Positions 1 to 29,422 of a DNA stretch of 29,721 nucleotides are shown in pieces. This DNA is from a virus. The translations under genes were made by a program, and so were the position numbers. Location of the stretch: IMG/VR virus record IMGVR_UViG_3300045988_159010; one strand, 5' to 3'. Position 1 is the stretch's first letter; each line of letters opens with the position of its first letter. Under the pieces are notes generated by a model. That model worked only from the letters and a program-made list of their open reading frames with translations, did not search any database and was not told where the DNA came from.

Positions 1-148
1 TGTAGAGTTTTTCTTCGAGTTCGCGGTAGAAGGCAGGCTGCCAAGGGCAGTTGAATGTAGTGGATAATTGCCATCTGCAATAATCAGTTTGAACATTGTT
101 CTTGTCAAGAAAACGGATTTCAGCATAGGGATTCCGTGCAGTTGCCAT
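1..148 (-). CDS. hypothetical protein, N-terminal part only (gene runs off the left edge)
   Basis: Minus-strand ORF whose ATG is at 148-146 (MATARNPYAEIRFLDKNNVQTDYCRWQLSTTFNC...). An AAGGA Shine-Dalgarno sits about 9 nt upstream, and it is co-directional with the three downstream minus-strand genes. Confidence 0.4.
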   Translation of the reverse strand, partial: MATARNPYAEIRFLDKNNVQTDYCRWQLSTTFNCPWQPAFYRELEEKLY

Positions 149-182
149 ATTGTATCATCCTTTCTATTGGAAGCCAAGGGTT

Positions 183-407
183 TTAACCCTTGGCTCTGTA
201 AGTTTCTTTGCCTTTCTCGAATGTGCTCATAACTTCACCAGTTTGCATATCAATGACATCTCTGTCATTCTTTGCCCATAGACTGTAAGCATGAGCCATG
301 GCTCGTGCTGCGGTTAGGCTGCGGTAGATTGTGCCATACTGACCAGTTGTGTGATTATAGATAGAGTACATGATGTTATCCCCTTTCTGATAGTCTGGTT
401 GAGCCAT
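183..407 (-). CDS. hypothetical protein (74 aa)
   Basis: Intact standard-code ORF on the minus strand with a TAA stop. Its start overlaps the stop of the upstream gene (TAATG), which suggests translational coupling. GC is visibly higher than in the rest of the window. Confidence 0.5.
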   Translation of the reverse strand: MAQPDYQKGDNIMYSIYNHTTGQYGTIYRSLTAARAMAHAYSLWAKNDRDVIDMQTGEVMSTFEKGKETYRAKG

Positions 408-742
408 TAGCTCAACCAGATCTGCTTACTTGTTGCGATAGACCAACGACGCCGACTTGCTGCCAGCCGTTCGACTTCCCACTTGACCCATTTAGAACAA
501 CCGCATTCGTCCATATCAGCGAAAATACGTTCCAGCTCCATATGGTCGCTCTTCATCGAGGATTCAGTGTAGTTTGCCTTAGCAATCTGCCGTGCAATAT
601 AGTCCTTCTGATCCAGCAGCTTGTGAAAGGTGGCTTCGCCATCAGGGTCAGAGAATTTGACCCTGTTCATGGCATCGTTGATGTGAAAGATGGTGTTCAT
701 CATAGCTTCCTTGCGTGCGATTCTTCTGTTGATACGGTTCAT
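407..742 (-). CDS. hypothetical protein (111 aa)
   Basis: Minus-strand ORF with a GGAGG Shine-Dalgarno 8 nt upstream of the ATG (GGAGGTATAACTATG on the minus strand), a TAA stop and no internal TAG. Confidence 0.55.
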   Translation of the reverse strand: MNRINRRIARKEAMMNTIFHINDAMNRVKFSDPDGEATFHKLLDQKDYIARQIAKANYTESSMKSDHMELERIFADMDECGCSKWVKWEVERLAASRRRWSIATSKQIWLS

Positions 743-795
743 AGTTATACCTCCATATAATGTTAGTTGGTTGTTAGGTGGATGGGTGAAGAAGC

Positions 796-1200
796 TTATG
801 CTTCTTCACCGTATAGTAGGTCGTGCAGTTTATAGAAGAAGTCTTCGAGCATATGTTCAAAGATATCCGCCCATTCCTCGGCCTCGTCTTGCAAGTCTGT
901 CAGCTTCTCATAGGCGGCCTCATATGCGATACATGGATTGCCAGTTTCCATATCCATGTTATAGTCCGTGTGCTCCAAGTCATATTCAGCACTATGAATA
1001 GCCCAAGTCAGGTTGTCCCACTGCGGGATATTCTTCGCCGCATATTCATGATACTTGTCCAGCATACCATCATAGTCGAAGCTATTGCCAAGCATATGGT
1101 ATTGCTTGACATATGCTATCAAGTCTTGTGCCTGTTCTGCTAACTCTGCTTTGATAGCTTTCTGTTTGTCCTGTTCGCTTGTTTTAATTGCATATACCAT
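796..1200 (-). CDS. hypothetical acidic protein (134 aa)
   Basis: Minus-strand ORF with a TAA stop. It is the first gene of a 4-gene leftward operon, and the long non-coding region 1201-1650 lies upstream of it. Confidence 0.55.
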   Translation of the reverse strand: MVYAIKTSEQDKQKAIKAELAEQAQDLIAYVKQYHMLGNSFDYDGMLDKYHEYAAKNIPQWDNLTWAIHSAEYDLEHTDYNMDMETGNPCIAYEAAYEKLTDLQDEAEEWADIFEHMLEDFFYKLHDLLYGEEA

Positions 1201-1650
1201 GATTTTACCAATCCTTTACATATTATTTGACTGTTAGTTGTCAGCTGTCCGTGGTGCTATCTGCCGTAGGCGATGGACTGCCCTACCGCTTGCACCGCAC
1301 TTTCCATGTTCTACCATTGCGTCCGCTATGCGGTGCAGACGCTCGGCTTAAATTCACTTGTCAATGTTCAACGCCGCTCGGTGCTTCGGCCTCTTTCCGG
1401 TCATTCTACTACACTTGCAAGGGCTTGCGTTGTTTGTTTTTCCCTTGCTTCGTTGTACTCATTGTACCATAGGATTTTCGGCTTGTCAAGAACTTTTTTC
1501 AAAATTTCTTGATTTTTTTTCGCTTGCTTGCGGCTTGCTTTGCGTTGTCCCGTGGTCAATTTCTGATTATAGAATAGCACCTATGCCCGAAAATGTCAAC
1601 TACTTTTTTTCAAAAATCGAAATATTTTTTTAGGGGGTTAGTCGTATCTA
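1201..1650. other. long GC-rich non-coding leader/regulatory region
   Basis: The only ORFs are overlapping, low-complexity ones in three frames with no RBS. There is a 9-bp perfect inverted repeat, TGCACCGCA at about 1296-1304 and TGCGGTGCA at about 1339-1347. GCTTGC-type short repeats occur at 1520-1545, and a 7-bp operator-like inverted repeat TCAAGAA...TTCTTGA at about 1487-1512. Confidence 0.4.
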
Positions 1651-1773
1651 ACTTGCTTCATTTGAATAAAGTAAGACAATAGACTTTAACATTTTAGTCA
1701 AGTGAAGTGGGGGGGCAGGGTTTCGTGTAAAAAAAATGGAAAAAATGGATAAATCTTCCTACCTGGCAAAATA

Positions 1774-1850
1774 ATTTCTAAAACCTTTTTTAATTTTAGA
1801 AATCGGAACAAATTTCTAAACTCATTTTTAATTTCAGAATACGGAATAAA
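1774..1850. repeat. two tandem ~38-bp direct repeats (AATTTCTAAA-N-TTTTTAATTTyAGAAwwCGGAAyAA); the first carries a perfect 10-bp inverted repeat (ATTTCTAAAA/TTTTAGAAAT)
   Basis: Unit 1 spans 1774-1811 and unit 2 spans 1812-1850, at roughly 85% identity by eye. In unit 1, 1774-1783 pairs perfectly with 1794-1803. Confidence 0.6.
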
Positions 1851-1865
1851 TTTATAAAAAAAATA

Positions 1866-1887
1866 AGCGGGAAAATATTTTCCCGCT
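1866..1887. terminator. bidirectional intrinsic terminator (perfect 22-nt palindrome AGCGGGAAAATATTTTCCCGCT)
   Basis: A perfect palindrome flanked by an A-run on the left and a T-run on the right. It is placed directly downstream of the minus-strand AbrB-like gene, whose stop is at 1921. Confidence 0.7.
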
Positions 1888-1920
1888 TTAATTTTATTCC
1901 TTAATTACTCGATATCCATT

Positions 1921-2121
1921 CTATTCCAATGTTTCTTTTGCAAGAGCTACGGCATCACTGGCTTCAGGACATTCAATACATAAAAAAGTCTTACCATCTA
2001 CTTCATCAATGTAAAATTCATAATTATGACCATTTACCATATGCAATTCTTCACGAAGTTTAGAAGGAATCATTAAACGTCCAACTGTATCAAGTTTTCT
2101 TGTATAAGCTGTTTTCAGCAT
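1921..2121 (-). CDS. AbrB/MazE/SpoVT-family transcriptional regulator (66 aa)
   Basis: The translation MLKTAYTRKLDTVGRLMIPSKLREELHMVNGHNYEFYID shows the characteristic VGRL-IP-xLRE looped-hinge motif of the SpoVT/AbrB swapped-hairpin fold. There is an AAAGGAG RBS and a consensus promoter upstream. The stop codon is TAG, with an in-frame TAA 9 codons further on. Confidence 0.75.
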   Translation of the reverse strand: MLKTAYTRKLDTVGRLMIPSKLREELHMVNGHNYEFYIDEVDGKTFLCIECPEASDAVALAKETLE

Positions 2122-2185
2122 TTTAACTCACTCCTTTCTTTTTAATTGGGAGAGTATGAGCCATCCCATAAATTTTTTATAATTC

Positions 2186-2214
2186 ATTTTACAAAATTTT
2201 TTGTTCTTTGTCAA
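2186..2214 (-). promoter_or_regulatory. sigma70/sigmaA-type promoter for the AbrB-like gene (TTGACA-N17-TAAAAT on the minus strand)
   Basis: On the plus strand, TGTCAA lies at 2209-2214 and ATTTTA at 2186-2191, with an exact 17-nt spacer. An AAAGGAGTGAG RBS precedes the ATG at 2121. Confidence 0.6.
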
Positions 2215-2243
2215 AATTTTTCTTAACAAAATCTTAACACGAA

Positions 2244-2705
2244 TTAATTAAAAGGAATAATACCTTCATTAGGGTCAATTACTCCTCGTTCTTGATGAAA
2301 GCGATAATTGACATATCCATTTTTAAATTTATAAACTTCTACTTCAGGTATAATATATTGATCTTCTTTATCTACAATTTTAGAACCAAGAGTAATACCA
2401 ATTGGGTCACCCTCTTCTTCATATTTAGATAAATCAATAGACATTAAATCTTTTTTATTTTTAATGACATGGACTATTCCAGGCCCAATATATTTTTCTT
2501 CTAGTCCTTTATTATATTCAATATATTTCTTATCGCTTTTAAAATTCATAAAATCTTCAAGGGCTTTAGTATAGTCTTTATAAAGCTTTGCTTCAATAAT
2601 TTTACCACAAATAAATCTGGCCGCACATCCTAATCCAAGTGCCGCACCACTACCTAAAAGAAGCCCATGGACAAACTTCATTAAATCACTTCCCTTAATT
2701 TTCAA
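2244..2705 (-). CDS. hypothetical secreted or membrane-anchored protein (153 aa; alternative SD-supported start at 2681)
   Basis: Intact minus-strand ORF with a TAA stop. The N-terminus (MKIKGSDLMKFVHGLLLGSGAALGLGCAA) looks like a signal peptide or lipoprotein-like leader. The internal ATG at 2681 has an AGGGAAG Shine-Dalgarno. Confidence 0.55.
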   Translation of the reverse strand: MKIKGSDLMKFVHGLLLGSGAALGLGCAARFICGKIIEAKLYKDYTKALEDFMNFKSDKKYIEYNKGLEEKYIGPGIVHVIKNKKDLMSIDLSKYEEEGDPIGITLGSKIVDKEDQYIIPEVEVYKFKNGYVNYRFHQERGVIDPNEGIIPFN

Positions 2706-2716
2706 ATATAATATAT

Positions 2717-2872
2717 TTACTTTTTCTTACGCTCTTTGGTAGGATTATAGGCTCCTTGCTGTTTAGGATTTTCACCCCACATAATTTGATAAACAGCTCT
2801 TGTTGCACTATTAGTTGCTCTACGTTTAGCCTTAGAAGCCATACTGCCTAAAATACCACGAGGTTTTCTCAT
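2717..2872 (-). CDS. small highly basic protein (51 aa: MRKPRGILGSMASKAKRRATNSATRAVYQIMWGENPKQQGAYNPTKERKKK)
   Basis: Absent from the ORF track because it is under 60 aa, but it has a perfect consensus promoter and an AAAGGAG RBS immediately upstream. It ends in TAA and is first in the leftward early operon. Confidence 0.45.
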   Translation of the reverse strand: MRKPRGILGSMASKAKRRATNSATRAVYQIMWGENPKQQGAYNPTKERKKK

Positions 2873-2901
2873 AAAATTATCTCCTTTAATTTTATATAAA
2901 T

Positions 2902-2930
2902 ATTATATAAAAAATTTTTATAATTGTCAA
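2902..2930 (-). promoter_or_regulatory. perfect-consensus sigma70/sigmaA promoter (TTGACA-N17-TATAAT) driving the leftward early operon
   Basis: On the plus strand, TGTCAA lies at 2925-2930 and ATTATA at 2902-2907, with an exact 17-nt spacer. Confidence 0.65.
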
Positions 2931-2984
2931 TTTTACATTTTACATAATTTTTTTACTAAATACCATAAAAATTTTTGGCCATGG

Positions 2985-3013
2985 TTGACTTTGCAAATTT
3001 TTTGTGTTATAAT
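2985..3013 (+). promoter_or_regulatory. sigma70/sigmaA promoter with extended -10 (TTGACT-N17-TGtTATAAT) driving the rightward early operon
   Basis: TTGACT lies at 2985-2990 and TATAAT at 3008-3013, with a TG at -15/-14. It is divergent from the promoter at 2902-2930. The 29-mer is nearly identical to the promoter at 19406-19434. Confidence 0.65.
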
Positions 3014-3041
3014 TTTTTTAGAAGGATTGGAGGTATTAATC

Positions 3042-4106
3042 TTGATAAAATTAGATTATACTCTTGAAACTCCTGAAGAACGAAATGAATTAGTAAAAAA
3101 AATTTTAGAGGAAAATCCAAATCCTAATGAAAAGTATTTAGAAATCCTCGCAGATTATCTAATTCTATGTATGGAGAAACAAGAAAAAAAAGAAAAGAAA
3201 ATATTAACTGATAATAGATTAATGACAGTTAATAAACGTGAAACTTCTTTCGAAGGTCTTGTTTCCCAGTTAGAGAATGGTGAAGATGGTATATATAATT
3301 TAATTAATAGTGATAAAAATATGATATTTTAGCCAAAAGTTACAATTACAAAAAAAGATTTAGAAGATATTCCGAGCTTAAAACAATTAAAAGACGCTAT
3401 TACAACTTGGGAAGCAAAAATGAAAGTAGTGAGTGGTAAAGATGCTTTCACTATAAAAAAAGCATTAATAGAAATGCGTAAAGACCAATATGTTATTAAA
3501 AATGCTTATCGGAAGCCAATAGTACCAGTAAAGCTTACACGGTCCAAATATAAAATTAAATTAGATGAAGATGTAAAAATATTTGATGATGATGGATATC
3601 CAATTCCAGAAGGCGTCTCATTGATGAACCCTGAAATTTGCTCTTGCATTTTATGCAATTATTCTCGATTAAAAGAAGATAGTTGGGACCGTTTTGAAGA
3701 TGATACTTGGTATCTCATCTATGATTTTGAAAATATTTGTGATGAAGCTTTGGCTGATTATCCTATGTTAATGCGTATTGTAGAATGTAAAATTGATGGA
3801 TTACAAAATATAGAGATTCAAAAAATTTTACAAGAAGAATTTAATATTACCCACAGTTTAGAATATATATCAAGTTTATTCCGCAATAAAATACCAAAAC
3901 TTATTGCCGATAAAGCTGTTGATAAATATTTAGAGTGGTATTATACAACTCAAGAAAAAGGCAAATATAAAAAATGCAGTCGATGTGGGCAAATTAAATT
4001 AGCTCACAATAAATATTTTTCCTATAACAAAACAAGTAAAGATGGATTTTATAGTATATGTAAAAAATGCCGAAATAGTTCTCGTAAAGAAAAAATAAAA
4101 TCCTAA
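3042..4106 (+). CDS. early protein with C-terminal CxxC...CKKC zinc ribbon; one internal in-frame TAG at 3330-3332 (otherwise two genes, 3042-3332 and 3420-4106)
   Basis: A TTG start sits 8 nt after GGAGG at 3029-3033. ORFs 2985-3332 and 3420-4106 share a frame, and the 29 codons between them contain no TAA or TGA. The ATG at 3420 lacks a convincing RBS. The stop is TAA at 4104-4106 with a TGA at 4122. Confidence 0.5.
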
Positions 4107-4124
4107 AGAAAGGAGAAATATTGA

Positions 4125-5339
4125 TTGTCCAGCGAAGGTAAACAATATTATTGTGAAAAATGTAATAAAACTATGGATGGCACTTAGTTTTATACATCTA
4201 ATAATTTAGATAAATATCCCAATGATGGTAAATTACCAAAATGTAAAAAATGTATAACAATGCATGTGGATAATTGGAATCCGGATACTTATCTATGGAT
4301 ATTGCAAGAATGTGATGTTCCTTATATTCCTGAATAGTGGAATTAGTTAATGGGTAAATTTGCAAAGGATAGAGCGAAAGTCACTGGAATGACAATATTA
4401 GGTCGCTATCTCTCTGCAATGAAATTAAATCAATGGAAAGATTATAGATGGAAAGATAGTCAATTCTTGCAAGATTTACAAAATAAAAAAATAGAAGAAA
4501 CAATGAAGCAATAGGGATATGATATTCAAGATATTACTACTGCTATTCAACGAGCTTCATTCTCTTTGCCATCAGAAGAATTAAAAGAGCCGCCTCCTCC
4601 CGCGCCTCCTCCCTTAGATTTTGGGAATTCTGGGGAAGATTATTTTAAAGATAAATTAGATTTTGATGTTCCTGACTTAGGCGCAGAACTGACAGACGAA
4701 GATAAACGATATCTTTATTTAAAATGGGGAAAAGGTTATAGCCCTGATGAATGGGTGCGCTTAGAGCAATTATTTAATGAAATGATGTAGTCTTACGATA
4801 TTTAGTCTGCAGGCCATATTGATACATTAAAACTTGCCTGTAAGACATCATTAAAATCTAATTAGTTATTAGATATAGGTGATGTAGACGGCGCACAAAA
4901 GATGATTAAAATGTATGATTCTTTAATGAAGTCGGGCAAATTTACTGCCGCCTAGAATAAAGAAGAGTCTGGCGATTTCATTGATTCTGTTGGTGAATTA
5001 ATAGAAATGTGTGAGAAACAAGGTTATATCGAAAGATATTACATTGATACTCCAAATGATAAAGTAGATTTTACAATTAAAGATATGCAAAAATACACAC
5101 GCACTTTAATTGAACGAGAAACTAATCTTGGCAATATGATTGATTAGGCATTAAAACAAAACGCTAAAGAAGATGAATAGGCCAAAGAAAACGTCGAAGA
5201 TACAATTGTTGATGATGTTGATATGTCTATTGAAGATATTGAAAAAACTTTGGAAGATAAAGATATCGAAGACTTTGGCGAATTTTTAGATAATGAGACA
5301 GAGTTAGATATAGATGCTTTCTCTGATAGAGAAAATTAA
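4125..5339 (+). CDS. TAG-containing protein (404 aa) with N-terminal CxxC...CKKC zinc ribbon, a proline run and an acidic C-terminus; possible small terminase subunit by position
   Basis: I verified the frame codon by codon: 10 in-frame TAG and no TAA/TGA until the TAA at 5337-5339. A TTG start follows an AAAGGAG RBS. The stop overlaps the TerL ATG (TAATG). The function is inferred from synteny only. Confidence 0.55.
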
Positions 5340-7090
5340 TGGCATTACAAGACTTGCTTGACCTATCTACCAGTAGAAAAAAGATAGGTCTTTCTGAAGA
5401 ACGTATTAATGCCGTAATGCCAGTCATTCGTAAATATACTGCCTTTTGGCGCGAATATCCAGATTTATTTGTTGATTTTTTAGTACGAGGAACACGTACA
5501 GAATAGAAAGAAGGAGAATTTAAATTTTTCTTCTATTAGCGTGTTTTCTTACGTTGTGTTATGCGTTATCAATATGTTTATGCAGTTTTCCCTCGTGCTT
5601 ATTCTAAATCATTCTTATCAGTTATGGCATTAATGGTTAGATGTATTCTTTATCCTGGTGTTCATTTATTTGTTACTTCTGGTGGTAAGGAATAGGGCGC
5701 GAGCATCTTACATGATAAAGTTAATGAAATTTGTGATTTAATTCCTAGTTTTAAACGTGAAATTGATTGGGGCCGCGGTAAGAGCCAAGAGAGTAAAGAT
5801 AAAGTTCGTTATGTATTTAAGAATGGTTCTGTCCTTGATAACTTAGCAGCAAGAGAAAGCACCCGTGGCCAGCGTCGTCATGGCGGTTTGATGGAAGAAT
5901 GTGTAGGTATTGATGATTAGATTTTGCGTGAAGTCATTATACCGGTTATGGCAATTCCTCGTAGAGCTAAAGATGGTACAACCCATGAAGAAGAAGCAGT
6001 TAATAAGTCTTAGATTTATATTACTACTGCTGGTTATAAAAATACATATCCTTATGATAGATTGATTGGTTTGTTAGTTCGTATGATTACATAGCCTGAT
6101 AGATGTATGGTATTAGGCGGTACATGGCGAACTCCTGTCGCTGTTGGATTACAATAGAAAACATTCATTACCGACCAGAAAAATGAAGGAACTTATAATG
6201 AAGCTTCCTTTGAACGTGAATATGAATCAATTTGGTCTGGTACTGTTGAAGATGCTTTCTTTAATGCCGAAATATTTAATAGAAATAGAATATTGAATTA
6301 GCCTGAGTATGAAGCTTCTGGCCGTTCAAGTAAATTATCTTATTATATATTAAGTGTTGACGTAGGCCGTAAAGGATGCGATACTGTTGTTTGCGTATTT
6401 AAAGTAACGCCGCAACCGCATGGTGAACCGATTAAAAGTTTAGTTAATATTTATACTATGAATGATACTCATTTTGAGGATTAGGCTATTAAACTTAAAA
6501 AATTATATTATAAATATAAAGCTCGTAGAATTGTAATAGATGCTAATGGACTTGGCGTTGGTTTAGTTGATTTTATGGTTAAACCACAGATTAATCCTGA
6601 AACTTCTGAAGTAATTCCTGATTTTGGTGTTTATGGTGGAACTTAGGACGATGCGGTTTAGGAATATAAAAAGTATAAAACCAATAGTACAGAATTAGAT
6701 GTTTTATATTTGATGAAAGCTAATGCACCAATTAATACTGAAGCTCATAGCATTACTTAGTCAGTATTAAATTCTGGTAAAATTAAATTTTTAATAGATG
6801 AGCGAATGGCTAAATAGAAATTATTGACTACTAAAGTTGGTTAGAATATGACTACAGAGGCGCGGTCTGATTATTTAAGACCATTTAGTTTAACTACTTC
6901 ATTACGCGAAGAGATTATGAATTTGCGCGAAGAGAATGAAGGTTTAAATATTATTTTAAAACAAGCTAATAAAAGTATTAAAAAAGATAAATTTTCTGCA
7001 TTAGAATATGGATTATATTATATAAAAAAAATAGAAGAAGATAAAAAGAAGAAAAAATTCCGGGCTGCTGATTGGATGTTTATGAATTAA
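5339..7090 (+). CDS. terL: terminase large subunit (584 aa)
   Basis: I verified the frame codon by codon: 14 in-frame TAG and a TAA stop at 7088-7090. It has an N-terminal ATPase with a deviant Walker A (FPRAYSKSF). The C-terminal nuclease domain carries a RuvC/RNaseH-like IVIDANGLGVGLVDF motif, as is typical of TerL. Confidence 0.85.
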
Positions 7091-7099
7091 GCCGGGCAA

Positions 7100-7143
7100 C
7101 TCTTATTATTCTTTTAAATTAATTTTTAAAAGAATAATAAGAG
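7100..7143 (+). terminator. perfect 16-bp AT-rich hairpin (CTCTTATTATTCTTTT / AAAAGAATAATAAGAG, 12-nt loop) just after terL
   Basis: The inverted repeat 7100-7115 / 7128-7143 is perfect. It could be a partial terminator, an RNA-processing site or the boundary of an inserted gene. Confidence 0.45.
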
Positions 7144-7178
7144 GAATTTATTTGTAGATAAGAAAGGAGACTTAATAT

Positions 7179-7535
7179 ATGGATGCCAGTCGTGCGGAAA
7201 TTAAGATTAGAGAAATCTTAGAGGAAGCCGGCCTGAATTTTAAGATGGAATATATATTTCCAGATTTAAAAACACATAATGGTCGTCCTTTACGTTTTGA
7301 TTTTGTCATATTTGATGATGATAATAATATTGATTTTTTAATTGAATATCAAGGGAAATAGCATTATGAAGCTAGTAATAAATTTGGCGGAAAACGTGGA
7401 TTATATCAATAGCAATATAATGATAATCAAAAACGTAGATTCTGTGCTTTACATGATTTACATTTAATAGAAATTCCTTATACAGAAGAAAATTTAATTT
7501 CTTATGATTATATAATGCGAAAAGCTGGATATTAA
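7179..7535 (+). CDS. DUF559/Vsr-like PD-(D/E)xK endonuclease-fold protein (118 aa), possibly a homing-endonuclease-like insert
   Basis: It has an AGAAAGGAG RBS, 2 in-frame TAG and a TAA stop. The motif RFDFVIFDDDNNIDFLIEYQGKQHY...KRRFCALHDLHLIEIPY matches the DUF559 signature (hhDFhh...IEhDGxxH ... R...L...G..hhRh). Confidence 0.5.
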
Positions 7536-7552
7536 TTGAAAGAAGGTGAAGT

Positions 7553-9241
7553 ATGGAATTAGAAAAGGAAGAATTAACCAGAAATGAATAGATACATAAA
7601 AAAGGTTTTGACATAACTGGAGGAGTACGTGAGTATTCTGCAGTTGGCCCAAATGAATATAAGAAGATTAAGGTTGGTGTTAAGACATTAGACGATGCTG
7701 TCTTAAATCTTGGATCTTTTAGATGGGACACTTATGGTCGTCGCAATGAAAAGTATAGCCGTGAACGTATTTATACAAAGCCCATGGTTATGGATGCTTT
7801 AATTCGTAATGATATTCAAGAATTGCGAAGAATATCACGCTTCTTTTTTAGAGTAAGTGGTATTTATCAAAGAGTATGTAATTATTTTGCGAATATGTAT
7901 CGTTATGATTGGGCTATTGCTATTTAGTCTAATAATACTGACGGCTCTGCTGTTAAAGATATTAATGAAACAAAAGCAGTAAAAGATTTCTGGCGAATTT
8001 TAAATTATTTAGATAATTCTTATATTAAGAAAATTTGTGGCGATATGGCTCTTGAAGTTATCAAATGTGGAGCTTATTATGCCTATATTGTTTCCTCAAG
8101 TACTGGCTTAATTTTATAGCAACTTCCTATTGAGTATTGTCGTTCAAGATATTCAGTAGGTAATTTACCTGCTATTGAATTTGATATGAGATACTTTGAT
8201 ACTTTTGTGGATACTAATTACCGTAATAGAGTATTAAAATTATTCCCTGATGAATTTACAATAGGTTATCGTCTCTATAAGGCTGGTAAACTTTTACCTG
8301 ATGTAGCTGGTGATAATACTGGTAGTTGGTATTTGTTAGATCCACAAAGCACTATTAAGTTTGCTTTAAATGGTACTAATGATATTCCATTATTTGTAAA
8401 TGCTATTCCAGCAATTTTGGATTTAGATGCCGCACAAGATTTAGACCGCCGCAAGCAGATGCAAAAATTATTAAAGATTTTAGTTTAGAAATTACCACTT
8501 GATAAAAATGGTGATTTGATTTTTGATATTGATGAAGCTCGTGATATTCATAATAATGCTGTTGAAATGTTGCGTAGAGCTGTAGGTGTTGATGTATTAA
8601 CTACTTTTGCAGATGTAGATGCTATTGATACTTCTGATAAAAATACTTCTGCTACCACAGATGAATTAGAGCGTGTTGAACGAACTGTATATAATGCATT
8701 TGGCGTTTCGCGCAATTTATTTAATACAGATGGCAATATTGCGTTGGAAAAGTCTATCTTAGATGATGAATCTACCATGCGTAATTTAATTTTGCAATTC
8801 AACATATTTTTTGATAGAATATTATCAGTCCTGAATGTTTAGAAAAAATATAATTATAAGTTCTATATGTTAGAAACTACACAATATAATTATAAAGATT
8901 TATCTAAGATGTATAAAGAGCAAACTTAGATTGGTTTCTCTAAAATGTTACCTTAGATTGCTCTTGGATAGTCATAGAGTTTTATTCTTAATACGGCTCA
9001 TTTTGAAAATGAAGTTCTACATTTAAGTGAAGTTATGATACCGCCTCTTATGAGTTCTACATTAAATGGTGAAGATATTTTGGGTAAAAAAGATTAGAGT
9101 AGTTCTAACACTTCTCAAAATAAAACAAGCGGAAATACCACTACTGTAAAAACAGAAACTAAAGAAAGTGGTCGGCCAGAAAAAGCTAATGATGAAAAGA
9201 GTGAAAAAACAATCGCTAATCGTCAAGCGGCTGGTAAATAA
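7553..9241 (+). CDS. portal protein (562 aa)
   Basis: I verified the frame: about 10 in-frame TAG and a TAA stop at 9239-9241. The call rests on its size, on its position immediately after TerL, and on a Ser/Thr/Lys-rich low-complexity C-terminal tail of the kind seen in portals. Confidence 0.7.
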
Positions 9242-9253
9242 GGAGGATTTATA

Positions 9254-10795
9254 GTGAGACATACAAGTGTTAAGTTAGATACTCCTGTTGAGTTTATTAA
9301 TATCACTAAAATCAATCCTTTAATTTCTAAATGTTAGATTAAAGTTTGTTATGTTGGTGATAAACCAAATCGCAATAGAAGTGTTATAACAAAAGAAGTT
9401 GCTAAAGATTTAGCACAAAGTTTACCAGGTAGCCCTATTGTTGGTTATTTTAATGAAGCCAATGGTGATTATGAAGAACATAATCGTATTATTGATATTT
9501 CTAATGGTAAATTTGATATCAAAGATACTACTGTTCCTTATGGTTTTGTAGACTTAGGAGCTAAAGTATGGTTTTAGAAATTTTTAGATGATGGAAAAAA
9601 CGAGCATGAATATTTAATGACTGAAGGCTATATCTGGACAGATATCTATCCAGAAAGTAAACGTATTATTGAAAAAGGTAATAATCAATCTATGGAATTA
9701 GATGATGAAAAAATTAATGCGTATTGGTCGAAAGATAAGAATGGAATGCCCGAATTTTTTATTATAAATGAAGCAATAATTAAGAAACTTTGTATTCTTG
9801 GAGAAGATTGTGAACCTTGCTTCGAAGGAGCTAATATTACTGCACCTACGATGCATTTCTCATTTAGTGATAAATTTAATGAGCAATTATTCTCTATGAT
9901 GAAAGATTTAAAAGAATTATTAGAAGGTAAAGGAGGAACAAAAGTGTTCACAAGATATAGTGTGGAGATTGGTGATTCCATTTGGACTTCTCTTTATTCT
10001 TACATTAAGGGTTTCGGAGCAGGTAATGCAATGATTGAAGAAGTTTGCGAAGACAATGGTAATTTATTTGCTATTGTCAAGGAAGATGATAAGTTCGTTC
10101 GTTTAGATTTTTCTATGGAGAATGATACTTTCACTCCTGGTGAAGTTTCTGAATTAACTGATTATTCTGTTTCTGATAATCCTCAATTCGATCCTGAAAA
10201 AGTTGCAGAATTTGCAAAGAAAAAAAAGGACGAAAAAGATAAAGACAATAAAGAGAATAATGATAATAATAAGGAAGATCCTTCTAAAGATCAGCCAAAA
10301 GATGATGAAAAGAAGGACACTCCCGAAAATAAACCAACTGATACTTCTGATGAAGAAGAAGAACCAACTGAGGATGATGAAGAGAAAAAAAAGAAAAAGA
10401 AAGCTAAGTACTCTTTGGAAGATGTAGTTGAATATGGTTTATTAAAAGACGAGTATACCGCGCTTGAAACTAAATATAATGAATTAGTTGAAAAGCAAAC
10501 ACAACTCGAACAAGAACTTGCTTCTTTAACTCAGTTTAAGACTGAGGCTGAAAGAGAAAAGAAACAAGAAATGATTAATAGTTTCTATATGTTATCTGAT
10601 GATGATAAGAAAGATGTTGTTGCTAATATTGATACTTATTCATTAGATGATATTGAAGCAAAGCTTTCTATTATCTGTGTTCGCAATAAGGTCAATTTCG
10701 ATACTAATGAAAAGAAAGAAAATGACCCACTTACATATAATATTAATAATGATGTAAATGACGATAGCATTCCTGCTTGGATTAAGGCAGTATAG
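9254..10795 (+). CDS. head morphogenesis / scaffold-like protein (513 aa) with a poly-K/E/D low-complexity segment and a C-terminal coiled coil
   Basis: A GTG start follows GGAGG. I verified the frame: 2 TAG near the N-terminus, then an open stretch to the TAA at 10793-10795. The charged KKKKDEKDKDNKENN...EEEEPTEDDEEKKKKKK region and the coiled-coil segment (LETKYNELVEKQTQLEQELASL) fit a scaffold-like role, as does its position after the portal. Confidence 0.6.
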
Positions 10796-10843
10796 GATGT
10801 TGCGAAAACTATGGAATAATAAATTTTTAAGGAGGAAAACCTA

Positions 10844-11620
10844 ATGCTTTTAAAAGATATGCTTAAAGACCTAAGCGGCGTATCTGCTGTTAAGGGCGGC
10901 TACGTTGAATATGGCTATGGTCAGGTTGAGCCTAATCATTTAAGTGCTCAACGCACTGGTCAGATTTATGCTCAATTACCTGCTAACAGAAATATCCAGC
11001 TTCTTGAAAATGGCCAGTTTGTTAAGTATGACTATGCTGCTGGTGAGCTTGGTGAAGTTGATTTCACTGGCAAGGGCGAATGGATGTTAGTTTATAATGA
11101 AATTAAACTTTATCGTGAGGAACAAGCTGATTGCGAATTTGCTATGCGCAAAGATGATTATCAAGCTCGTTATTACAGCCCCTATGATGGCAAGCAGGAA
11201 ATTGGTACACGTCAGGCTCGCTATTTAAATGGTAAGGATGCCGAAGGTAATACTTCTATGACTATTACAGATAGTCAGGGTGTACAACATACTTATGAAT
11301 ATGATGATGTCACTGCTGGTCCTGATATTCGTGAACTCTTCTATGAAGAAGATCCTTTACACTTTGATGGTCCTTATGAGGCCCGTAGAATGCCTGCTGG
11401 CACTAATATGGTTCCTCGTGTTTTCAAGACCAATGTTGGTGATATTTTTACGACTAATACTATTGCCGAAGCTACTCTTGTAGTTGGTGATATTTTAAGT
11501 CCTCGTGCTGCTGATGGTATGCTTTCTAAGACCGGTGATGGCTCTATCCAGTGGTAGGTTGTCAAGGTTTATGAAATGCCTGATCATCAGAAGGGCGTTA
11601 AGATTATGCGAATCGCGTAA
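10844..11620 (+). CDS. head protein (258 aa), TAG-free except one near the C-terminus
   Basis: It has a very strong RBS (TTAAGGAGGAAAACCTAATG) and GC visibly higher than the neighbouring genes. The single TAG at 11555-11557 is followed by 20 more sense codons before the TAA at 11618-11620. Confidence 0.6.
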
Positions 11621-11637
11621 GAAAGGAGAGAAGAAAA

Positions 11638-12774
11638 ATGTTAGATAGAAAAAATCTTGTTCAATTAATGAAGACTGTCGCTAAGGCTGATCCTTCTACT
11701 CCTACTGCTTACAGCTTTAATGGCGAAAGCCTTTCTTATGATGCTCTTAATGAAACTCTCCGCAGAGAATTAAATGAACTTGCTGGAACTTATTCTTTAT
11801 ATCGTGATAATAAGAACCTTATTTTCTCAATGATTGAGGAAACTATTGATGAAGTTCTTCCTAAGAAAGTTGAAGAGCAATATAATCAGTTTGCTGAAGT
11901 TAAGACGTTTAAACAGGGTGACAAGCCTATTTTCCGTAGAAAGTTCAGCAACAATACTCGTGCAAAGCAATTCATCACTCGTGTCGGCCTAGCTGGTATC
12001 TATGAAGTATTCAAGCTTGGTAAGACTGAAGAATGCTTTGAAGTCCGTACAAGTGCTATCGGCGGAGCTGCTCAAATTGGCTTTGAGGAATTCCTTGATG
12101 GCCGTGTCGATTTTGGTGTTGTTACCCAGATCGTCATGGAAGGTATGGATGACCTTATCTATAAAGAAATTGCCGGTGCTTTAAAGGCTTCTGTTAACCA
12201 GTTACCTCCTGCTAACCGTTTAGTTGCTAATGGTTTTGATGAACCCGGTTTTGATAAGTTACTTATGATTGCTTCTGCTTATGGCACTCCTACTATTTAT
12301 TGCACTTATGAATTTGCTGTTCGTATGATTCCGAAGGATGCTTGGCGTTATACTGAAGCTATGAAGAATGAGCTTTGGAACACTGGCCGTCTTGCTTCCT
12401 ATAAGGGCTATAAAGTTGTTATTCTTGAGCAGGGCTTTGAAGATGCTACCAATGAAAAGAAAGTCATTGACCCAGGTTATGCTTGGATTATTCCTACTGG
12501 TGCTGATAGTAAGCCTGTAAAGGTTGCTATGGAAGGCAATACCATTGTTGATGAATATACCAATTATGATCGTAGCCGTGAAATTCAGGTTTATAAGAAA
12601 GTTGGCGTTATTGCTATGTTAGCTAATAACATCTGCTGCTATTGTGATACTGAACTTCTTGGTGATATGAAGACATGGCATCTTGATGGCGTAACTGGTA
12701 AGGTCCGTGACTATGCTGGTCAAATTACTGGTTCTCATGATACTATTGATGGCGGTAACGAAGATAAGCCGTAA
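11638..12774 (+). CDS. major capsid protein candidate (378 aa)
   Basis: It has a GAAAGGAGAG RBS, no TAG codons, and elevated GC with biased codon use, which is the signature of a highly expressed gene. A strong intrinsic terminator follows, and the gene sits at the canonical position after the scaffold-like genes. The function is inferred from position and expression signals. Confidence 0.5.
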   Translation: MLDRKNLVQLMKTVAKADPSTPTAYSFNGESLSYDALNETLRRELNELAGTYSLYRDNKNLIFSMIEETIDEVLPKKVEEQYNQFAEVKTFKQGDKPIFRRKFSNNTRAKQFITRVGLAGIYEVFKLGKTEECFEVRTSAIGGAAQIGFEEFLDGRVDFGVVTQIVMEGMDDLIYKEIAGALKASVNQLPPANRLVANGFDEPGFDKLLMIASAYGTPTIYCTYEFAVRMIPKDAWRYTEAMKNELWNTGRLASYKGYKVVILEQGFEDATNEKKVIDPGYAWIIPTGADSKPVKVAMEGNTIVDEYTNYDRSREIQVYKKVGVIAMLANNICCYCDTELLGDMKTWHLDGVTGKVRDYAGQITGSHDTIDGGNEDKP

Positions 12775-12809
12775 TTGATATTAACTAAAAATTAATATAT
12801 AATATTTTT

Positions 12810-12850
12810 AGGGGAGAATGGGGAAATCCCCTTCTCCCCTATTTTGTTTT
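12810..12850 (+). terminator. intrinsic terminator (AGGGGAGAATGGGGAAATCCCCTTCTCCCCT + ATTTTGTTTT)
   Basis: A GC-rich interrupted stem (AGGGGAGAA/TTCTCCCCT with an inner GGGGA/TCCCC) is followed by a T-rich tract directly after the capsid candidate. Confidence 0.7.
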
Positions 12851-12872
12851 ATGAGTAAAAGGAGAATAAAAA

Positions 12873-13439
12873 ATGAATAAAAAAGTTTTATTAGTTACTA
12901 ATAGAAGTGCTGGAATGGTCGTTTATACTATTCCTGAAGAAGGCATTCGTAGAGAATTCACACCTGGTGAAACTAAAAAAATTCCTTTTGAGGAATTAGA
13001 GAAGCTTGCTTACCTTAGCGGAGGCCGCACCTTAATGGAAAATTTCTTAAAAATTGTAGATACTCAAACTACAGAAGAATTGGGTATTCATACAGAACCT
13101 GAATATTATTTAGATGATGCTGGAGTTATTAAGCTCCTTACTGAGGGAACTCTTGATGAATTCCTTGATTGTCTTGATTTTGCTCCTATTGGAGTTATTG
13201 ATATGATTAAGAGCTATGCTGTATCTCTTCCTATGAGTGATTATAATAAGCGTAAAGCTCTTAAGGATAAGACTGGATTTGACCTTGATAGAGCATTAGC
13301 TAATAAGGAAGCTGAAGCTGCGGAGGATGAACAGATTACTCCAAAAGCTCCTGAACGTAGAGTGAAGACTGAAACTAAGCCTACAACGCCTCCTGGTCGT
13401 AGAACTGCTCCTCGTTATAATGTTGTAAAAGAAGGTTAA
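12873..13439 (+). CDS. hypothetical structural protein (188 aa), TAG-free
   Basis: Intact ORF with an AAAGGAGAAT RBS. The C-terminus is Pro/Thr/Arg-rich. Confidence 0.65.
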   Translation: MNKKVLLVTNRSAGMVVYTIPEEGIRREFTPGETKKIPFEELEKLAYLSGGRTLMENFLKIVDTQTTEELGIHTEPEYYLDDAGVIKLLTEGTLDEFLDCLDFAPIGVIDMIKSYAVSLPMSDYNKRKALKDKTGFDLDRALANKEAEAAEDEQITPKAPERRVKTETKPTTPPGRRTAPRYNVVKEG

Positions 13440-13461
13440 TTATAAATAAGGAGGGTTTTAT

Positions 13462-14073
13462 ATGACATATTTTTATAAAGTTTATGAACGTTTTTTAGGC
13501 AAAGTAACAGATGATATGTATTTAGAACTTACTCCTCGTGATACATTTTTAGATTTACGCCAATTACTTGTTGATAGTATTCCTGGATTTGAATTTCCGC
13601 GTAAACGATTAGATTACGTTTTAGTAGATGAAGATGCTCCTGATTTTATAAAAGGAGAGATTGATGGCGGAGATATTGATATACCATTAGGTGGAGATTT
13701 GTTTGAAGAAGTAGCTGGTAGTAATATTGATATAGATAATGCTTTTTAGGAGATATTTTCTGAGGAAAATACCTCCTATTTTAATGCCGATTTAGATGAT
13801 GAAGAAATTAATATCTTAGCTTTAATCATGGTTGAAGCTTGGGTGGAACGTCAATTGGCATCTATCGAAGTAACAAGAATGAAATATTCTGGAACAGATT
13901 TTAAATTTACTTCATAGGCAAATCATATGTAGAAATTGTTATCATTGAGAACAGAAGTAAGACGTCAGGCATTTCATATGTAGAGATTATATAAACGTCG
14001 TAAAACTGATGATGATGGATATATTAAATCCAATTGGTCTGTTCTAAGGGAGGTAAGCGCCCTTGATGACTAA
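13462..14073 (+). CDS. hypothetical head-tail joining region protein (203 aa)
   Basis: It has a TAAGGAGGG RBS. I verified the frame: 4 in-frame TAG and a TAA at 14071-14073. Confidence 0.6.
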
Positions 14074-14359
14074 ATATAATTTTGATATAGACAATAATTT
14101 AATTAATACTAATATTAATAGACTCACTAATTAGATATGGAAATTAATTCCTATGAGAGAAAATGAAGAAGATTGGTTATCTTAGTTAAATACTGTAATT
14201 ATTGAATTAACTGGTCTTGGGGAAATTTTTAATGATAGTTAGTATTTAATTCTTTTAAGTAAATTAGAAGGACTAAAAAATATTGAAATTGAATTTCCTA
14301 TTTATAGAAAGACAGTGTTTGAAGCTATTACTTTATTAAGGGGGCTTCATATTGAATAA
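14066..14359 (+). CDS. hypothetical small protein (97 aa)
   Basis: It overlaps the upstream gene by 8 nt. I verified the frame: 3 TAG and a TAA at 14357-14359. Confidence 0.5.
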
Positions 14360-15347
14360 AAATGAATATTTAGATGCAATGTATAACCGTATTCCAAAAG
14401 CCAATATGCTTACAAGATATTTATATGGCGATGGAGTAACAGGACAACAAGAACGAATGATAAGAGATAAACGTAAAACATTAAGTAGAGCTTTACTTTA
14501 TTCTTATCAAGCTGCCTTGGTAAAAAAATTATATGATGATAAAGATACTATTGAACGTCGTGCATTAATCAACCCTGATAAAACAAAATAGGATTATGAT
14601 GAAAAAATTATTTCAATTGGTTTTGAAAGTAATTTTAAAACTGGGGATATTTTTTAGTGGTTAGGTACAAATACTTATTGGTTAATTTATTTACAGGATT
14701 TAACTGAATTAGCTTATTTTCGTGGCAATATAAGACGTTGTTCTTATGAAATTGCTTGGGAAGATGAAAATAAAAATTATCATAAAACTTATGTAGCTTT
14801 GCGTGGTCCTGTTGAAACTAAAATTAATTACATCCAAAAGCATGAAATTAGTATAGATACACCTAATCATTCTTTAAATATATTATTACCTTATAATGAT
14901 GATAATGTAAAATTATGCTAGCGTTATAATAAATTTTATTTGTAGAATGACCCTAATAAAACATGTTGGCGTATTGAAGCTATTGATTTGTATTCTACTC
15001 CTGGAATAATTGAAATTAATGCTGTCGAGTATTATTCTAATGAAACTGCTGATGATATTGATAATGGCATTGTCAACGGTTTAATATAGCCGGTTCAAGA
15101 TCCTAATTCAGGTAAGGAGAATGGTATTATTGGTGATACTTTTATTAAGCCAAAAGTGGTATATGAATATAAATATAATGGAATCAAATCTGGTAAATGG
15201 ACTTGGGATAAAAAACTACCATTAACAGTTAAAGTAAACGAAGAAACAAATACTTTAAAATTACGATGGGAAACTACTTATTGTGGTTAGTTTGATTTGT
15301 TCTATGGGCCAGAATGTAAAACCATTGTAGTTGAATCTTTATTTTAA
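14352..15347 (+). CDS. hypothetical structural protein (331 aa)
   Basis: A TTG start follows AAGGGGG, with an alternative ATG at 14379. I verified the frame: 7 TAG and a TAA at 15345-15347. Confidence 0.55.
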
Positions 15348-15368
15348 AGATGAAGGAGAAATCGGAGA

Positions 15369-15959
15369 ATGAAAATTGATAATGTAAAAAATCCAGAGTC
15401 AGCATTTTTAGCCCAAGAAAAAGATATGAGAATCATAGTTGATCGTATGGCCGCGAATCAACGTTTGCGTAAATTACTTTATTATACTACTCCTGATGCA
15501 TTAAGATTGCCAGAAGTAAGTGATTAGAATTTTGTAAAAATGTTCGGTAAAAATATAAGGAATTTACCAAAATTATATATAGATAAAGATGTTTTAAATT
15601 ATATTGTTATTAGTTTTGATAACTTTGCTCCTAATGGAGACAATCCTGAATTTAGGGATAATACTATTGAATTTGATATTGTTTGTCATTATGATTAGTG
15701 GCAATTAGCTGATTCATTTTAGTTAAGACCTTATAGAATCGCTGCCGAACTTGATAGTATGTTAGATAAAAAACATTTAACTGGAATTGGGCAACTTAAT
15801 TTCATCGGAGCATAGCAAATTATATTAACTGATGAATTTGCTGGACTTTGTTTATTATATGATACAATACACGGAGGAGAAGATAAAAAATATATGCCAA
15901 ATCCTGCTGATGAACAAATGTTTATCGAGGATTATTTTAAAATGCCTAAGATGAATTAA
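15369..15959 (+). CDS. hypothetical structural protein (196 aa)
   Basis: It has a GAAGGAGAAATCGGAGA RBS. I verified the frame: 4 TAG and a TAA at 15957-15959. Confidence 0.55.
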
Positions 15960-16693
15960 TGGATTATAAACTTAGTTTAATGTGCGGAACAGATTTACCT
16001 GTTCCAGAAATTCCATTAACCCTCCATTAGCCTAAGATAAAGGAAATAGCATTAATTGGCGAAAAAGAATTTTTTACTGGTGCTTAGTGTCTTTGTATTA
16101 ATAAAAATAGTATAACAAATCAGGACAAGAATGATTTGGATACTACTACCAATTTTTAGATATTTATGATGGTAATGCTATAGAAAGATAATAATGAACG
16201 GCGTAAAGCTGCGCAATAGGTTCTATCATTACTATTCCCAAATTCAAAGTCTACATTTACTCCTAGATCTATTGTTATTTAGTATAATGAGAGTGACATT
16301 TAGATTAATATTGATGATGATAACTTTGAATTATTTTAGTCGGTAGCAAGACAAATTTTTTGTTTTGATACTAATAAAAATGGGCAAGATAATTATAATC
16401 CTGCTAATAAGAAAGCTCAAGAAATAGCTAATAAATTAATGAAAGGGCGTCAAAGGGTCGCTGAACTTAAAGGGGTTACCGATTCAAGCATTTTGAGCCA
16501 ATACGTTTCTACATTGACTATTGGATTAGATTCAATGTCGTTAGAAGATTGTATGAATTTAACATTGTATTAGTTATACGATTTAATAGAAAGATTTTCT
16601 CTTTATACTAATTGGGATATTGATGTAAAGAGTAGATTAGCAGGAGCTAAGTCAGATAAAAAACCTGACAATTGGATGAAAAACATTCATTAA
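15959..16693 (+). CDS. hypothetical structural protein (244 aa)
   Basis: Its ATG overlaps the upstream TAA. I verified the frame: 11 TAG and a TAA at 16691-16693. Confidence 0.55.
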
Positions 16694-16772
16694 CTTTGTA
16701 TAAATCGCTTTACTAATTTTTGTAGCGAGTTATATAAATAAAATTTAAATTTTATTAAGGAGGAAATAACCT

Positions 16773-17864
16773 ATGAAATTTGGTGTTCGTGAAATATGCG
16801 ATGTCGTATTAAAAGCTCGTGCTCCTATGAAGGTTGGTAATAAAGTTTTCTATGCGAACGAACCAGTTCTTTATTTCGATACATTAAAAACTTCTAGCCT
16901 TGAAGGTGCTTCTACGACCGTATATGCACAAGGCGGACGCGGCAATGCTCGTTTAGTAGCTTGGGACGGTGACCGTACTTTAACATTCACTATGGAAGAT
17001 GCTCTTATTTCTGCAGAAGGTTTCATGATTCTTGCTGGAGCTGGCCTTATTGATGCTTCTAAACAGAATACAATTAAGCAACATGTAACTGAAAAGACTA
17101 CTGCTGTGGCTCTCTCTGAAGATAAGGATAGTGTACAAATTTTTATTAAAAATTTACCATATGAACAAATTGATACTACCACGGGTGCTCATAAAGGTGA
17201 ATATTATATTTATGCTATGCGTGTTGACAATGATGAACCAGTAACTGAGCCTTATCTTCCTACAGTTATTCGTCAAACTGAGGCGGGGGCAGTTGCGAAA
17301 CCTCAAAAGTTCTATTTTGATGAAACTGAAATGAAGTATAAGACTTGTACTGATGCAGAAGCTGATACTAAGGCTAAAGCTGGTACTTAGATTTATTATG
17401 GTCTTTAGATTAAGGAAATTACTTCTGCTTATAAGATTGTTGATGAAGCTGAAGCTAATGCAGTACATAAATTAGAATTATTTAAAGATTCTGTTGTTCT
17501 TCTTGATTATTATATTGAGAAGGCTAGCAATGCTCGTCAAATTGAAATTACCGCTGAATCTTTTGGTGGCAACTTCTATCTTGAAGCTTCTACCTTATTC
17601 CGTACTCAGGATGGTGTTGATCTTCCTGCCGAATTTATAATTCCTAACTGCAAGATTCAGTCTAACTTTACTTTCAGTATGGCTGCTACTGGCGATCCTG
17701 CAACTTTCACTTTCACACTTGATGCTTTCCCAGGAACTACTCGTTTCAATCCTACTAAGAAAGTATTGGCTGCTGTTCAGGTCATTGAAGATATTGATAA
17801 TGATAGTGTCTATCGTACTCAAACTATCCATGATCCGATGCATGACAGCTATTTTGATATTTAA
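16773..17864 (+). CDS. major tail protein candidate (363 aa)
   Basis: It has a very strong RBS (TTAAGGAGGAAATAACCTATG) and only 2 TAG codons (17388, 17406). GC is elevated. A strong terminator follows after a small downstream ORF. The function is inferred from position and expression signals. Confidence 0.5.
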
Positions 17865-17866
17865 TT

Positions 17867-18031
17867 ATGATTATTAGCTCTAATGCTCCACGACCTGTTA
17901 AAGCATCTGAAGTAGAAAAAGTTATAGTTAAAAAATCAAAAAAAGAAAATAAAAATTCTCAAGAAAAAGAGAATAAAATTCCTCTTACAGAGGATGAACT
18001 TATTGATAAGATTATTAAAGGAGAGGGTTAA
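17867..18031 (+). CDS. small Lys-rich ORF (54 aa)
   Basis: The ATG lies 2 nt after the upstream TAA. There is no TAG, and the TAA at 18029-18031 is embedded in the terminator hairpin. Confidence 0.4.
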   Translation: MIISSNAPRPVKASEVEKVIVKKSKKENKNSQEKENKIPLTEDELIDKIIKGEG

Positions 18032-18049
18032 TCCCTCTCCTTTTTTTTT
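18020..18049 (+). terminator. intrinsic terminator (GGAGAGGG-TTAAT-CCCTCTCC followed by T9)
   Basis: A perfect 8-bp GC-rich stem (18020-18027 / 18033-40) is followed by a 9-T run. Confidence 0.8.
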
Positions 18050-18075
18050 ATTATGTGAAAAAGGAGATATAATAT

Positions 18076-19405: not shown

Positions 19406-19434
19406 TTGACTTTGGAAATTTTTTTTGTTATAAT
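19406..19434 (+). promoter_or_regulatory. sigma70/sigmaA promoter with extended -10 (TTGACT-N17-TGtTATAAT), a near-duplicate of the one at 2985
   Basis: TTGACT lies at 19406-19411 and TATAAT at 19429-19434. It differs from the 29-mer at 2985-3013 at only 2 positions. Confidence 0.6.
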
Positions 19435-20039: not shown

Positions 20040-20081
20040 AATATCATAATTGATTTCTAATTTAAATAGGAATATTAAAAG

Positions 20082-29402: not shown

Positions 29403-29422
29403 GAGGAGAGAAAGGAGTTAAT

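Follow-up and report, generated by a model that had tools for sequence, protein, structure and literature searches.

Two divergent arms that differ in their use of TAG meet at a host-type promoter pair in an SPbeta-like gut siphovirus

The division of phage genomes into early genes in the standard genetic code and late recoded genes has been described for gut phages, along with suppressor tRNAs and recoded homing endonucleases, by Borges et al. (2021 preprint, doi 10.1101/2021.08.26.457843), whose clades include the crAss-like, Lak, Garnet, Topaz and other phages. Recoding of TAG has also been reported for phage phAss-1 of the proposed genus Phassvirus (Babkin et al. 2023, PMC10607447; GenBank OQ749652). 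Here we analyse 29,721 nucleotides of the IMG/VR virus record IMGVR_UViG_3300045988_159010, the whole of which is referred to as the window. The window is the meeting point of two divergent arms in a code-15 (TAG = Gln) SPbeta-like siphovirus, probably one with two-step translation: a leftward arm poor in TAG, and a rightward arm of virion genes rich in it, of which gene g07 (plus strand, 3042–4106) is the first. The early-standard, late-recoded pattern is already published, and the present data contribute corrected coordinates and nuances for a further phage.

As in the phages of Borges et al., TAG is read as glutamine, only part of the genome is recoded, the structural genes form one recoded unit, the suppressor tRNAs lie in the standard-code part (here seen in relatives), and a recoded homing-endonuclease gene is found among unrecoded genes; a translational timer is proposed. 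Unlike the clades of these authors, we deal with a roughly 189-kb SPbeta-like siphovirus that is not obviously any named clade, in which the boundary is a divergent pair of host-type promoters and the major capsid genes are TAG-free. Borges et al. also report a bias towards lysis genes, and the window holds no lysis genes.

Phage phAss-1 is a related large siphovirus of similar two-arm layout, in which the major capsid protein is 49% and the terminase 42% identical to those of the window, TAG is likewise glutamine and the capsid cluster is TAG-free. Its tape measure has 3155 amino acids (aa) and 110 TAGs, compared with 3074 aa and 115 TAGs here, and its 36 tRNAs, including three Sup-CTA, are encoded on a mostly standard-code arm; one of the suppressor tRNAs shares a long insertion with the tRNA(CUA) found in relatives of the window phage. 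The relationship is nevertheless distant, at the family level, with no DNA match, 30–50% amino-acid identity and a rearranged order of modules; in addition, phAss-1 has no detectable g07 homolog and several genes of its minus arm are recoded.

Judging by its gene content and by a matching scaffold, the window can be assigned to an SPbeta-like siphovirus of about 189 kb. A capsid protein identical to that of the window is encoded on scaffold_9 of ENA ERZ5855809, a sequence of 189,494 bp from a Peruvian gut metagenome (SRR1761717), on which the window occupies about 57.1–86.8 kb in reverse orientation. Gene calling there followed code 15, and the Pfam families YonG_N, YonD_N, YonB, YomW, YomV_2nd and YomU_Tube are assigned to the products. 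The window thus shows the Yon/Yom structural families in SPbeta order and a very long tape measure (3074 aa), both marks of the SPbeta-like siphoviruses. Megablast of 25 kb of the window gave no DNA match to GenBank phages, and no Rfam match was obtained in the window. For comparison we used 80 related loci, namely IMG/VR contigs of 100–200 kb that each carry a homolog of g07; 17 of these are in the standard code throughout and the remaining 63 are recoded. Two of them (L001 and L002) match positions 1–14,100 of the window at about 95% identity, the GC-richer left flank included, and because this flank is contiguous in them it is phage and not host DNA. A prophage–host junction at the low-GC/high-GC step near 1900 was ruled out, as the left flank is contiguous in viral contigs of 107–188 kb.

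The standard-code relatives, cultured phages among them, include Enterococcus phages EF1/EF5/H1/VRE9_1-4, Brevibacillus phage Sundance, C. difficile phages phiCD211/phiCDIF1296T, Geobacillus virus E3 and B. subtilis SPbeta. They share the Yon/Yom structural families with the window phage, and a g07 homolog heads their packaging/structural module; it is 24–41% identical over at least 88% of g07 in the phages of Enterococcus, Brevibacillus and C. difficile, and 30% identical over the C-terminal 42% in Geobacillus virus E3. Left of this homolog, Enterococcus phage VRE9_3 has small genes encoded on the opposite strand. These phages differ from ours in using the standard code throughout and in having no TAG in the g07 homolog. 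The host is probably a member of the gut Bacillota. Contigs of phages of this family (L375–L422), some of 140–176 kb, are binned in metagenome-assembled genomes whose labels range over Mollicutes, Bacteroidales, Methanosphaera, Treponema, Alphaproteobacteria and many Bacillota; such bins are no reliable guide to the host, since the taxa contradict each other and the contigs are mis-binned.

In the standard code, the plus strand from about 4.1 kb onwards is a series of short open reading frames (ORFs), which turn into a near gap-free co-directional array once TAG is taken as sense: to the right of 4106, ORFs of 100 aa or more cover a fraction of 0.38 under the former and 0.98 under the latter. 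Reading TGA as sense gives 0.39, i.e., no gain, and recoding of TGA or TAA was ruled out by these coverage tests. The rightward virion arm (3042–29721) contains 202 in-frame TAGs, one in g07 and 201 in g08–g26, where they account for 201 of the 428 glutamine codons (47%), and TAG is never used there as a stop. The high density of in-frame TAG noticed in an earlier reading of the sequence alone (hereafter the sequence-only reading) is borne out, although it does not begin at 4171, the first TAG of g08 lying at 4185. In alignments to ten standard-code relatives, the TAG positions of the window face glutamine in 240 of 410 cases, followed by lysine (40) and glutamate (30); the glutamine frequency is about the same as that opposite CAA/CAG positions, and the residue profile is similar. 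Profile searches show that the terminase, portal and tape measure become full-length with TAG as sense. In the rightward arm TAG is glutamine. A check based on conservation, in which ORF calling was independent of the standard code and only ORFs conserved at no more than 55% identity between loci were taken, gave a TAG/Gln ratio of at most 0.075 in left arms versus 0.28 in right arms; the partition, which is conserved in about 60 relatives, is strong and family-wide yet quantitative and not absolute.

The sequence-only reading had recognized a sharp code boundary, which stands, but had put it at 4106/4125. Because g07 belongs to the recoded side, the boundary is in fact the divergent intergenic region of 169 bp at 2873–3041, where a leftward promoter (2930→2902, a 12/12 match to the consensus) lies next to a rightward one (2985–3013, TTGACT-17-TGnTATAAT). 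The product of g07 is a 354-aa helical, helix-turn-helix-like protein with a C-terminal Zn ribbon, and its gene has a sense TAG at 3330–3332 (Gln97). It had previously been split into a small gene and a Zn-ribbon gene, the latter being only the C-terminal part of g07; the presence of two genes at 3042–4106 was ruled out by a profile match across the TAG (phrog_5767, 4.7e-52, residues 30–346) and by the conserved glutamine at this site, which is invariant in 22 database homologs and present at the TAG position in 7 of 10 standard-code relatives. That g07 sits on the recoded side is also seen from its TAGs: 62 of the 63 recoded relatives have 1–7 of them in this gene, all 17 standard-code ones lack them, and the family-wide TAG/Gln ratio of 0.24 is that of the terminase genes. 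The PHROGs annotation of this family is 'sigma factor'. PHROG 5767 is, however, the sole match of g07: sigma regions 2 and 4 gave no Pfam or NCBIfam match and there was no PDB sequence match; the fold evidence for a sigma-like protein is weak, so that the sigma-factor identity is an unproven label. Similar CxxC…CxxC zinc-ribbon motifs are seen in the C-terminus of g07 (3960–4100) and the N-terminus of g08 (4140–4270), on both sides of an 18-nt gene junction.

A second correction concerns g04 (minus strand, 1894–2121), which encodes a regulator of the AbrB/MraZ/SpoVT type. Its N-terminal looped-hinge-helix matches Pfam MraZ PF02381 (25.0 bits, cut-off 23) and phrog_4681 (1.5e-7), the NCBIfam AbrB, SpoVT and MraZ profiles all remaining below cut-off. 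The TAG at 1921–1923, formerly taken as the stop of this gene, is in-frame codon 67 of a 75-aa frame ending in TAA at 1894; as a stop it would give a 66-aa product without the last 8 residues. One ortholog (L005) has CAG at this codon, the tail NGYRVIKE is conserved with synonymous differences in L001, L004, L005 and L006, and the ENA gene call is 75 aa long. The TAG itself is kept in 5 of the 6 lineages of the clade and the tail beyond it is under purifying selection. It follows that the claim of complete standard-code genes throughout 1921–4106 applies to g05 and g06, which have no TAG, and fails for g04 and g07. Of the three supposed standard-code components of a switch, two (the AbrB-like g04 and the 'Zn-ribbon' part of g07) carry a sense TAG, so neither would give a full-length product before suppression; both have homologs in standard-code relatives and are thus not specific to code switching.

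The placement of these two codons raises the question of whether they are selected sensors of the code state that tie late transcription or its repression to the code switch, the products formed before the suppressor tRNA being a 96-aa g07 fragment and an AbrB-like protein minus its last 8 residues. That g07 is the opening gene of the recoded arm, with a host-type promoter conserved throughout the family, that its sequence contains at least one TAG in 62 of the 63 recoded relatives, that the g04 TAG persists with a selected read-through tail, and that an AbrB-like gene of another clade has 3 TAGs would all agree with such a role. We nevertheless consider it unlikely. About 13 glutamine codons at a TAG/Gln ratio of ~0.25 would by chance alone leave some 97% of lineages with one TAG or more; the positions of the TAGs in g07 vary between clades; the family-wide ratio in g07 (0.24) equals that of the terminase genes; and the identity of g07 as a sigma factor is unproven. 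The notion that the arrival of the suppressor tRNA reprograms transcription besides translation through the sense TAGs of g07 and g04 (66-aa versus 75-aa form) is, accordingly, quite doubtful in our eyes.

On the other side of the boundary TAG is virtually absent from coding positions. In the six leftward genes (183–2872) none of 19 glutamine codons is TAG (P about 6e-6 against the late-arm rate), and in their orthologs none of 156; an uninterrupted block of genes without sense TAG thus adjoins the recoded structural module, codon 67 of g04 being the exception in the window. The gene next to the boundary, g06 (minus strand, 2717–2872), encodes a basic protein of 51 aa without TAG, and its orthologs in 30 recoded relatives have 0 TAGs in 61 glutamine codons. 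It is followed by g05 (minus strand, 2244–2681; 145 aa, hydrophobic N-terminus, no TAG), whose orthologs show 0 of 17 and for which PHROG, Pfam and NCBIfam profiles gave no family match. The arm as a whole contains small genes and genes of nucleotide metabolism. In mechanical ORF calls, TAG serves as the stop of 45 of 715 leftward ORFs (6.3%) in recoded relatives and of 12 of 153 (7.8%) in standard-code relatives; this similar share indicates that TAG still terminates in the left arm. The data support the view that the genome has two coding dialects, the TAG-poor arm being compatible with the standard code.

The left-arm genes farthest from the boundary, g01–g03 (minus strand, 183–1200), are three small genes of unassigned function, without TAG and all with TAA stops; their orthologs, found only in the six closest relatives, have 0 TAGs in 75 glutamine codons. 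These genes have 44–48% GC, compared with about 30% for most of the phage. In recoded relatives the GC content is 0.38–0.42 in the left arm and 0.33–0.34 in the right, while in most standard-code relatives the arms are about equal (difference 0–0.04). One might suppose from this that the lack of TAG is a mosaic accident, i.e., that the left-arm modules were recently imported from standard-code relatives and have not yet gained TAG. The deviating composition and narrow distribution of g01–g03, the highly variable content of left arms between relatives, the existence of standard-code family members as possible donors and the restriction of GC-richer left arms to recoded relatives would be in line with it. 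We regard this origin as quite unlikely, because all ~60 recoded relatives have a TAG-poor left arm despite their differing gene content, because g04–g06 are as AT-rich as the late genes and yet show 0 TAGs in 81 glutamine codons of their orthologs, and because selection explains the pattern more parsimoniously than a series of independent recent imports would.

The promoters do not follow the code. Seven matches of at least 11/12 to TTGACA-17-TATAAT are present in the window versus 1.9 ± 1.3 in simulations, and six of the seven lie in the intergenic 7% of the window, each pointing to a downstream gene. The near-consensus sigma70-type promoters that had been reported are real, being sigma-A-type sequences at (−)2930, (+)2985, (−)2214 and (−)1489, with the g04 promoter (minus strand, 2186–2214) reading TTGACA-17-TAAAAT. 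Three of the promoters serve leftward genes and three, at 2985, 12775 and 19406, belong to the recoded arm. The g07 promoter is conserved in 49 of the 53 distinct upstream regions compared, among them those of standard-code relatives, and a promoter identical to it at 27 of 29 positions, spacer included (plus strand, 19406–19434), stands upstream of g24 and the tape-measure gene, the operon with 115 TAGs; a further one (plus strand, 12775–12803) is internal to the capsid cluster. The sequence-only reading had linked good promoters to standard-code genes and had named equally good promoters of TAG-rich genes as the observation that would speak against the link; those at 12775 and 19406, inside the recoded arm, are of equal quality. 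Code use in this phage cannot be predicted from promoter class. Since all strong promoters on both arms are host-type sigma-A sequences, the TAG-rich genes would be gated in time, if at all, at the level of translation and not through promoter class.

The density of TAG within the late arm is itself uneven. In the capsid cluster g13–g15 (plus strand, 10844–13439; YonB-type major capsid protein at 11638–12774) only 1 of 28 glutamine codons is TAG, and in the tail tube gene g21 (YomU; plus strand, 16773–17864) 2 of 14; both prefer CAG and have a higher GC content than other late genes, and for g12–g15 and g21 together the count is 6 of 55. Across about 50 recoded relatives the TAG/Gln ratio of the capsid cluster and the tube gene is 0.01–0.02, and phAss-1 shows the same scarcity. 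Late capsid genes being near TAG-free, absence of TAG does not reliably identify an early gene. TAG is avoided in the genes of abundant virion proteins, namely those of the capsid cluster and the tail tube, probably owing to a limited capacity for suppression.

These data also admit an explanation without any switch, which we rate as possible though not favoured: TAG use would follow expression level or translational efficiency and not timing, and the boundary would reflect differing selection on the two arms, slow or leaky suppression purging TAG from abundant proteins and from those whose synthesis must be reliable, while low-copy or long proteins tolerate it. The scarcity of TAG and preference for CAG in the late capsid cluster and tail tube of about 50 relatives, the higher GC content at third codon positions of TAG-poor genes, the use of one promoter class for TAG-poor and TAG-rich genes alike and the occurrence of TAGs in the left arm of some clades all fit this explanation. 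The many small leftward genes, however, are unlikely to be all highly expressed and yet have 0 TAGs in 156 glutamine codons; stops of the TAG type at the standard-code rate are expected in the left arm only if it is read while TAG terminates; and in relatives the suppressor tRNA is found in that same arm.

The suppressor was searched for by pattern scans (three anticodon-arm patterns and one tRNA-His pattern) over viral contigs. A tRNA(CUA) of ~90 nt was detected in the tRNA clusters of 7 contigs that also carry a g07 homolog, namely L140 (7965–8054), L149, L180, L217, L221, L238 and L289, of a clade with 74–75% g07 identity. Its body is Gln-like, with a U1·U72 mismatch and G73, and an insertion of 17 nt gives it a long variable arm, which is unusual for a Gln tRNA. 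In two contigs that give both positions, 59 and 64 kb separate it from the divergence point, and its strand is that of the TAG-poor arm. As regards the location of the suppressor, a check proposed with the sequence-only reading, the direction of the TAG-poor arm holds in relatives, while the window and the contigs of its own lineage yielded none: scans of ±10 kb around the g07 homolog, covering 60 of the 80 related loci, and of another 10 kb to the left in the L001 contig gave no suppressor tRNA, and the AAA-ATPase that neighbours the tRNA cluster, used as a bait protein, gave no path to contigs of this lineage. The tRNA(CUA) is presumably present in this genome as well.

Several genes beside the tRNA(CUA) are recoded, namely those of an HNH endonuclease, a lysin-like protein and a repeat protein. 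The lysin-like one combines NAGPA (phosphodiester glycosidase) with a SPOR domain and is probably a lysin; its gene, located inside the tRNA cluster (L140, 5086–5973), contains 2 in-frame TAGs. A tRNA with the anticodon UCA ('SeC' by ARAGORN) was noted at L149 7726–7805, ~1.3 kb from the CUA suppressor; the arms examined showed no TGA recoding.

Taken as a mechanism, the two-step translation would proceed as follows, all timing of expression being what we infer. The leftward arm would be translatable at once by host ribosomes and, tens of kb further on, would supply the tRNA cluster with the Gln-type tRNA(CUA). The rightward arm, which begins at the promoter at 2985, encodes the sigma/helix-turn-helix-like regulator, terminase, portal, capsid, tail and 3074-aa tape measure, and full-length products of its TAG-containing genes would appear only after tRNA(CUA) has built up. 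The earlier idea of a standard-code early and a recoded late module is upheld as to the two dialects, the continued use of TAG as a stop in the left arm and the position of tRNA(CUA) in the direction of that arm in relatives, and is revised as to the position of the boundary and the switch components.

Several observations weigh against this reading. The suppressor tRNA was found neither in the window nor within 30 kb to its left in a 95%-identical contig, and exact-pattern tRNA scans gave no match in contigs of this lineage. The partition is also incomplete: g04 has a sense TAG amid otherwise TAG-free leftward genes, an AbrB-like gene in the L048/L049 clade has 3 internal TAGs, the first leftward gene of L054/L055 has 5, and an HNH gene with 4 TAGs is located inside the left arm of L085 (18194–18829). 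Conversely, the capsid genes are TAG-free though late.

The remaining genes of the rightward arm, all on the plus strand, comprise g08 and g09 (4125–7090), a YonG_N-like gene with 10 TAGs and the large terminase with 14, after which a terminator-like hairpin (7100–7143) closes the first operon; g10, g11 and g12 (7179–10819), an HNH-type endonuclease (7179–7535) with 2 TAGs, the portal with 10 and a YonD_N-like gene with 3; g16–g23 (13462–19395), head–tail and tail genes of the YomW, YomV and YomU types in which TAG makes up 40–100% of glutamine codons except in the tube gene; and g24, g25 and the start of g26 (19512–29721), g25 being the tape measure (20152–29376; TGA stop). By the rule of ~1.5 Å per residue, a tape measure of 3074 aa implies a tail of roughly 450 nm. 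In-frame TAGs occur in HNH/homing-endonuclease genes wherever these are placed, including the otherwise TAG-poor left arm and the tRNA cluster (2 at 7179–7535 in the window, 4 at L085 18194–18829 and 5 at L140 4163–4777).

In the leftward arm a terminator-like G+C hairpin (1865–1888) with T-runs on both strands lies 5 nt past the true stop of g04, and just beyond it there is a tandem 38-nt repeat (1773–1848) with a short palindrome in each copy. Two tandem sigma-A-like promoters on the minus strand (1489→1461 and 1599→1571), 110 nt apart within a duplicated 37-nt block (1484–1630), precede the ~250-nt leader of g03, whose fold is not significant (z = −1.55). The 38-nt repeat and the duplicated block may serve as operators or iterons.

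These results do not alter current views on why phages recode. They demonstrate that gene calling in the standard code splits one regulator gene (g07) and truncates another (g04) and that late genes, for example those of the capsid, may be TAG-free. From the point of view of the family, the window phage adds a well-resolved case of partial TAG-to-Gln recoding in a group of SPbeta-like phages of the Bacillota type, and the coexistence of recoded and standard-code members at 70–80% protein identity makes this family a good natural system in which to follow the spread of recoding gene by gene.

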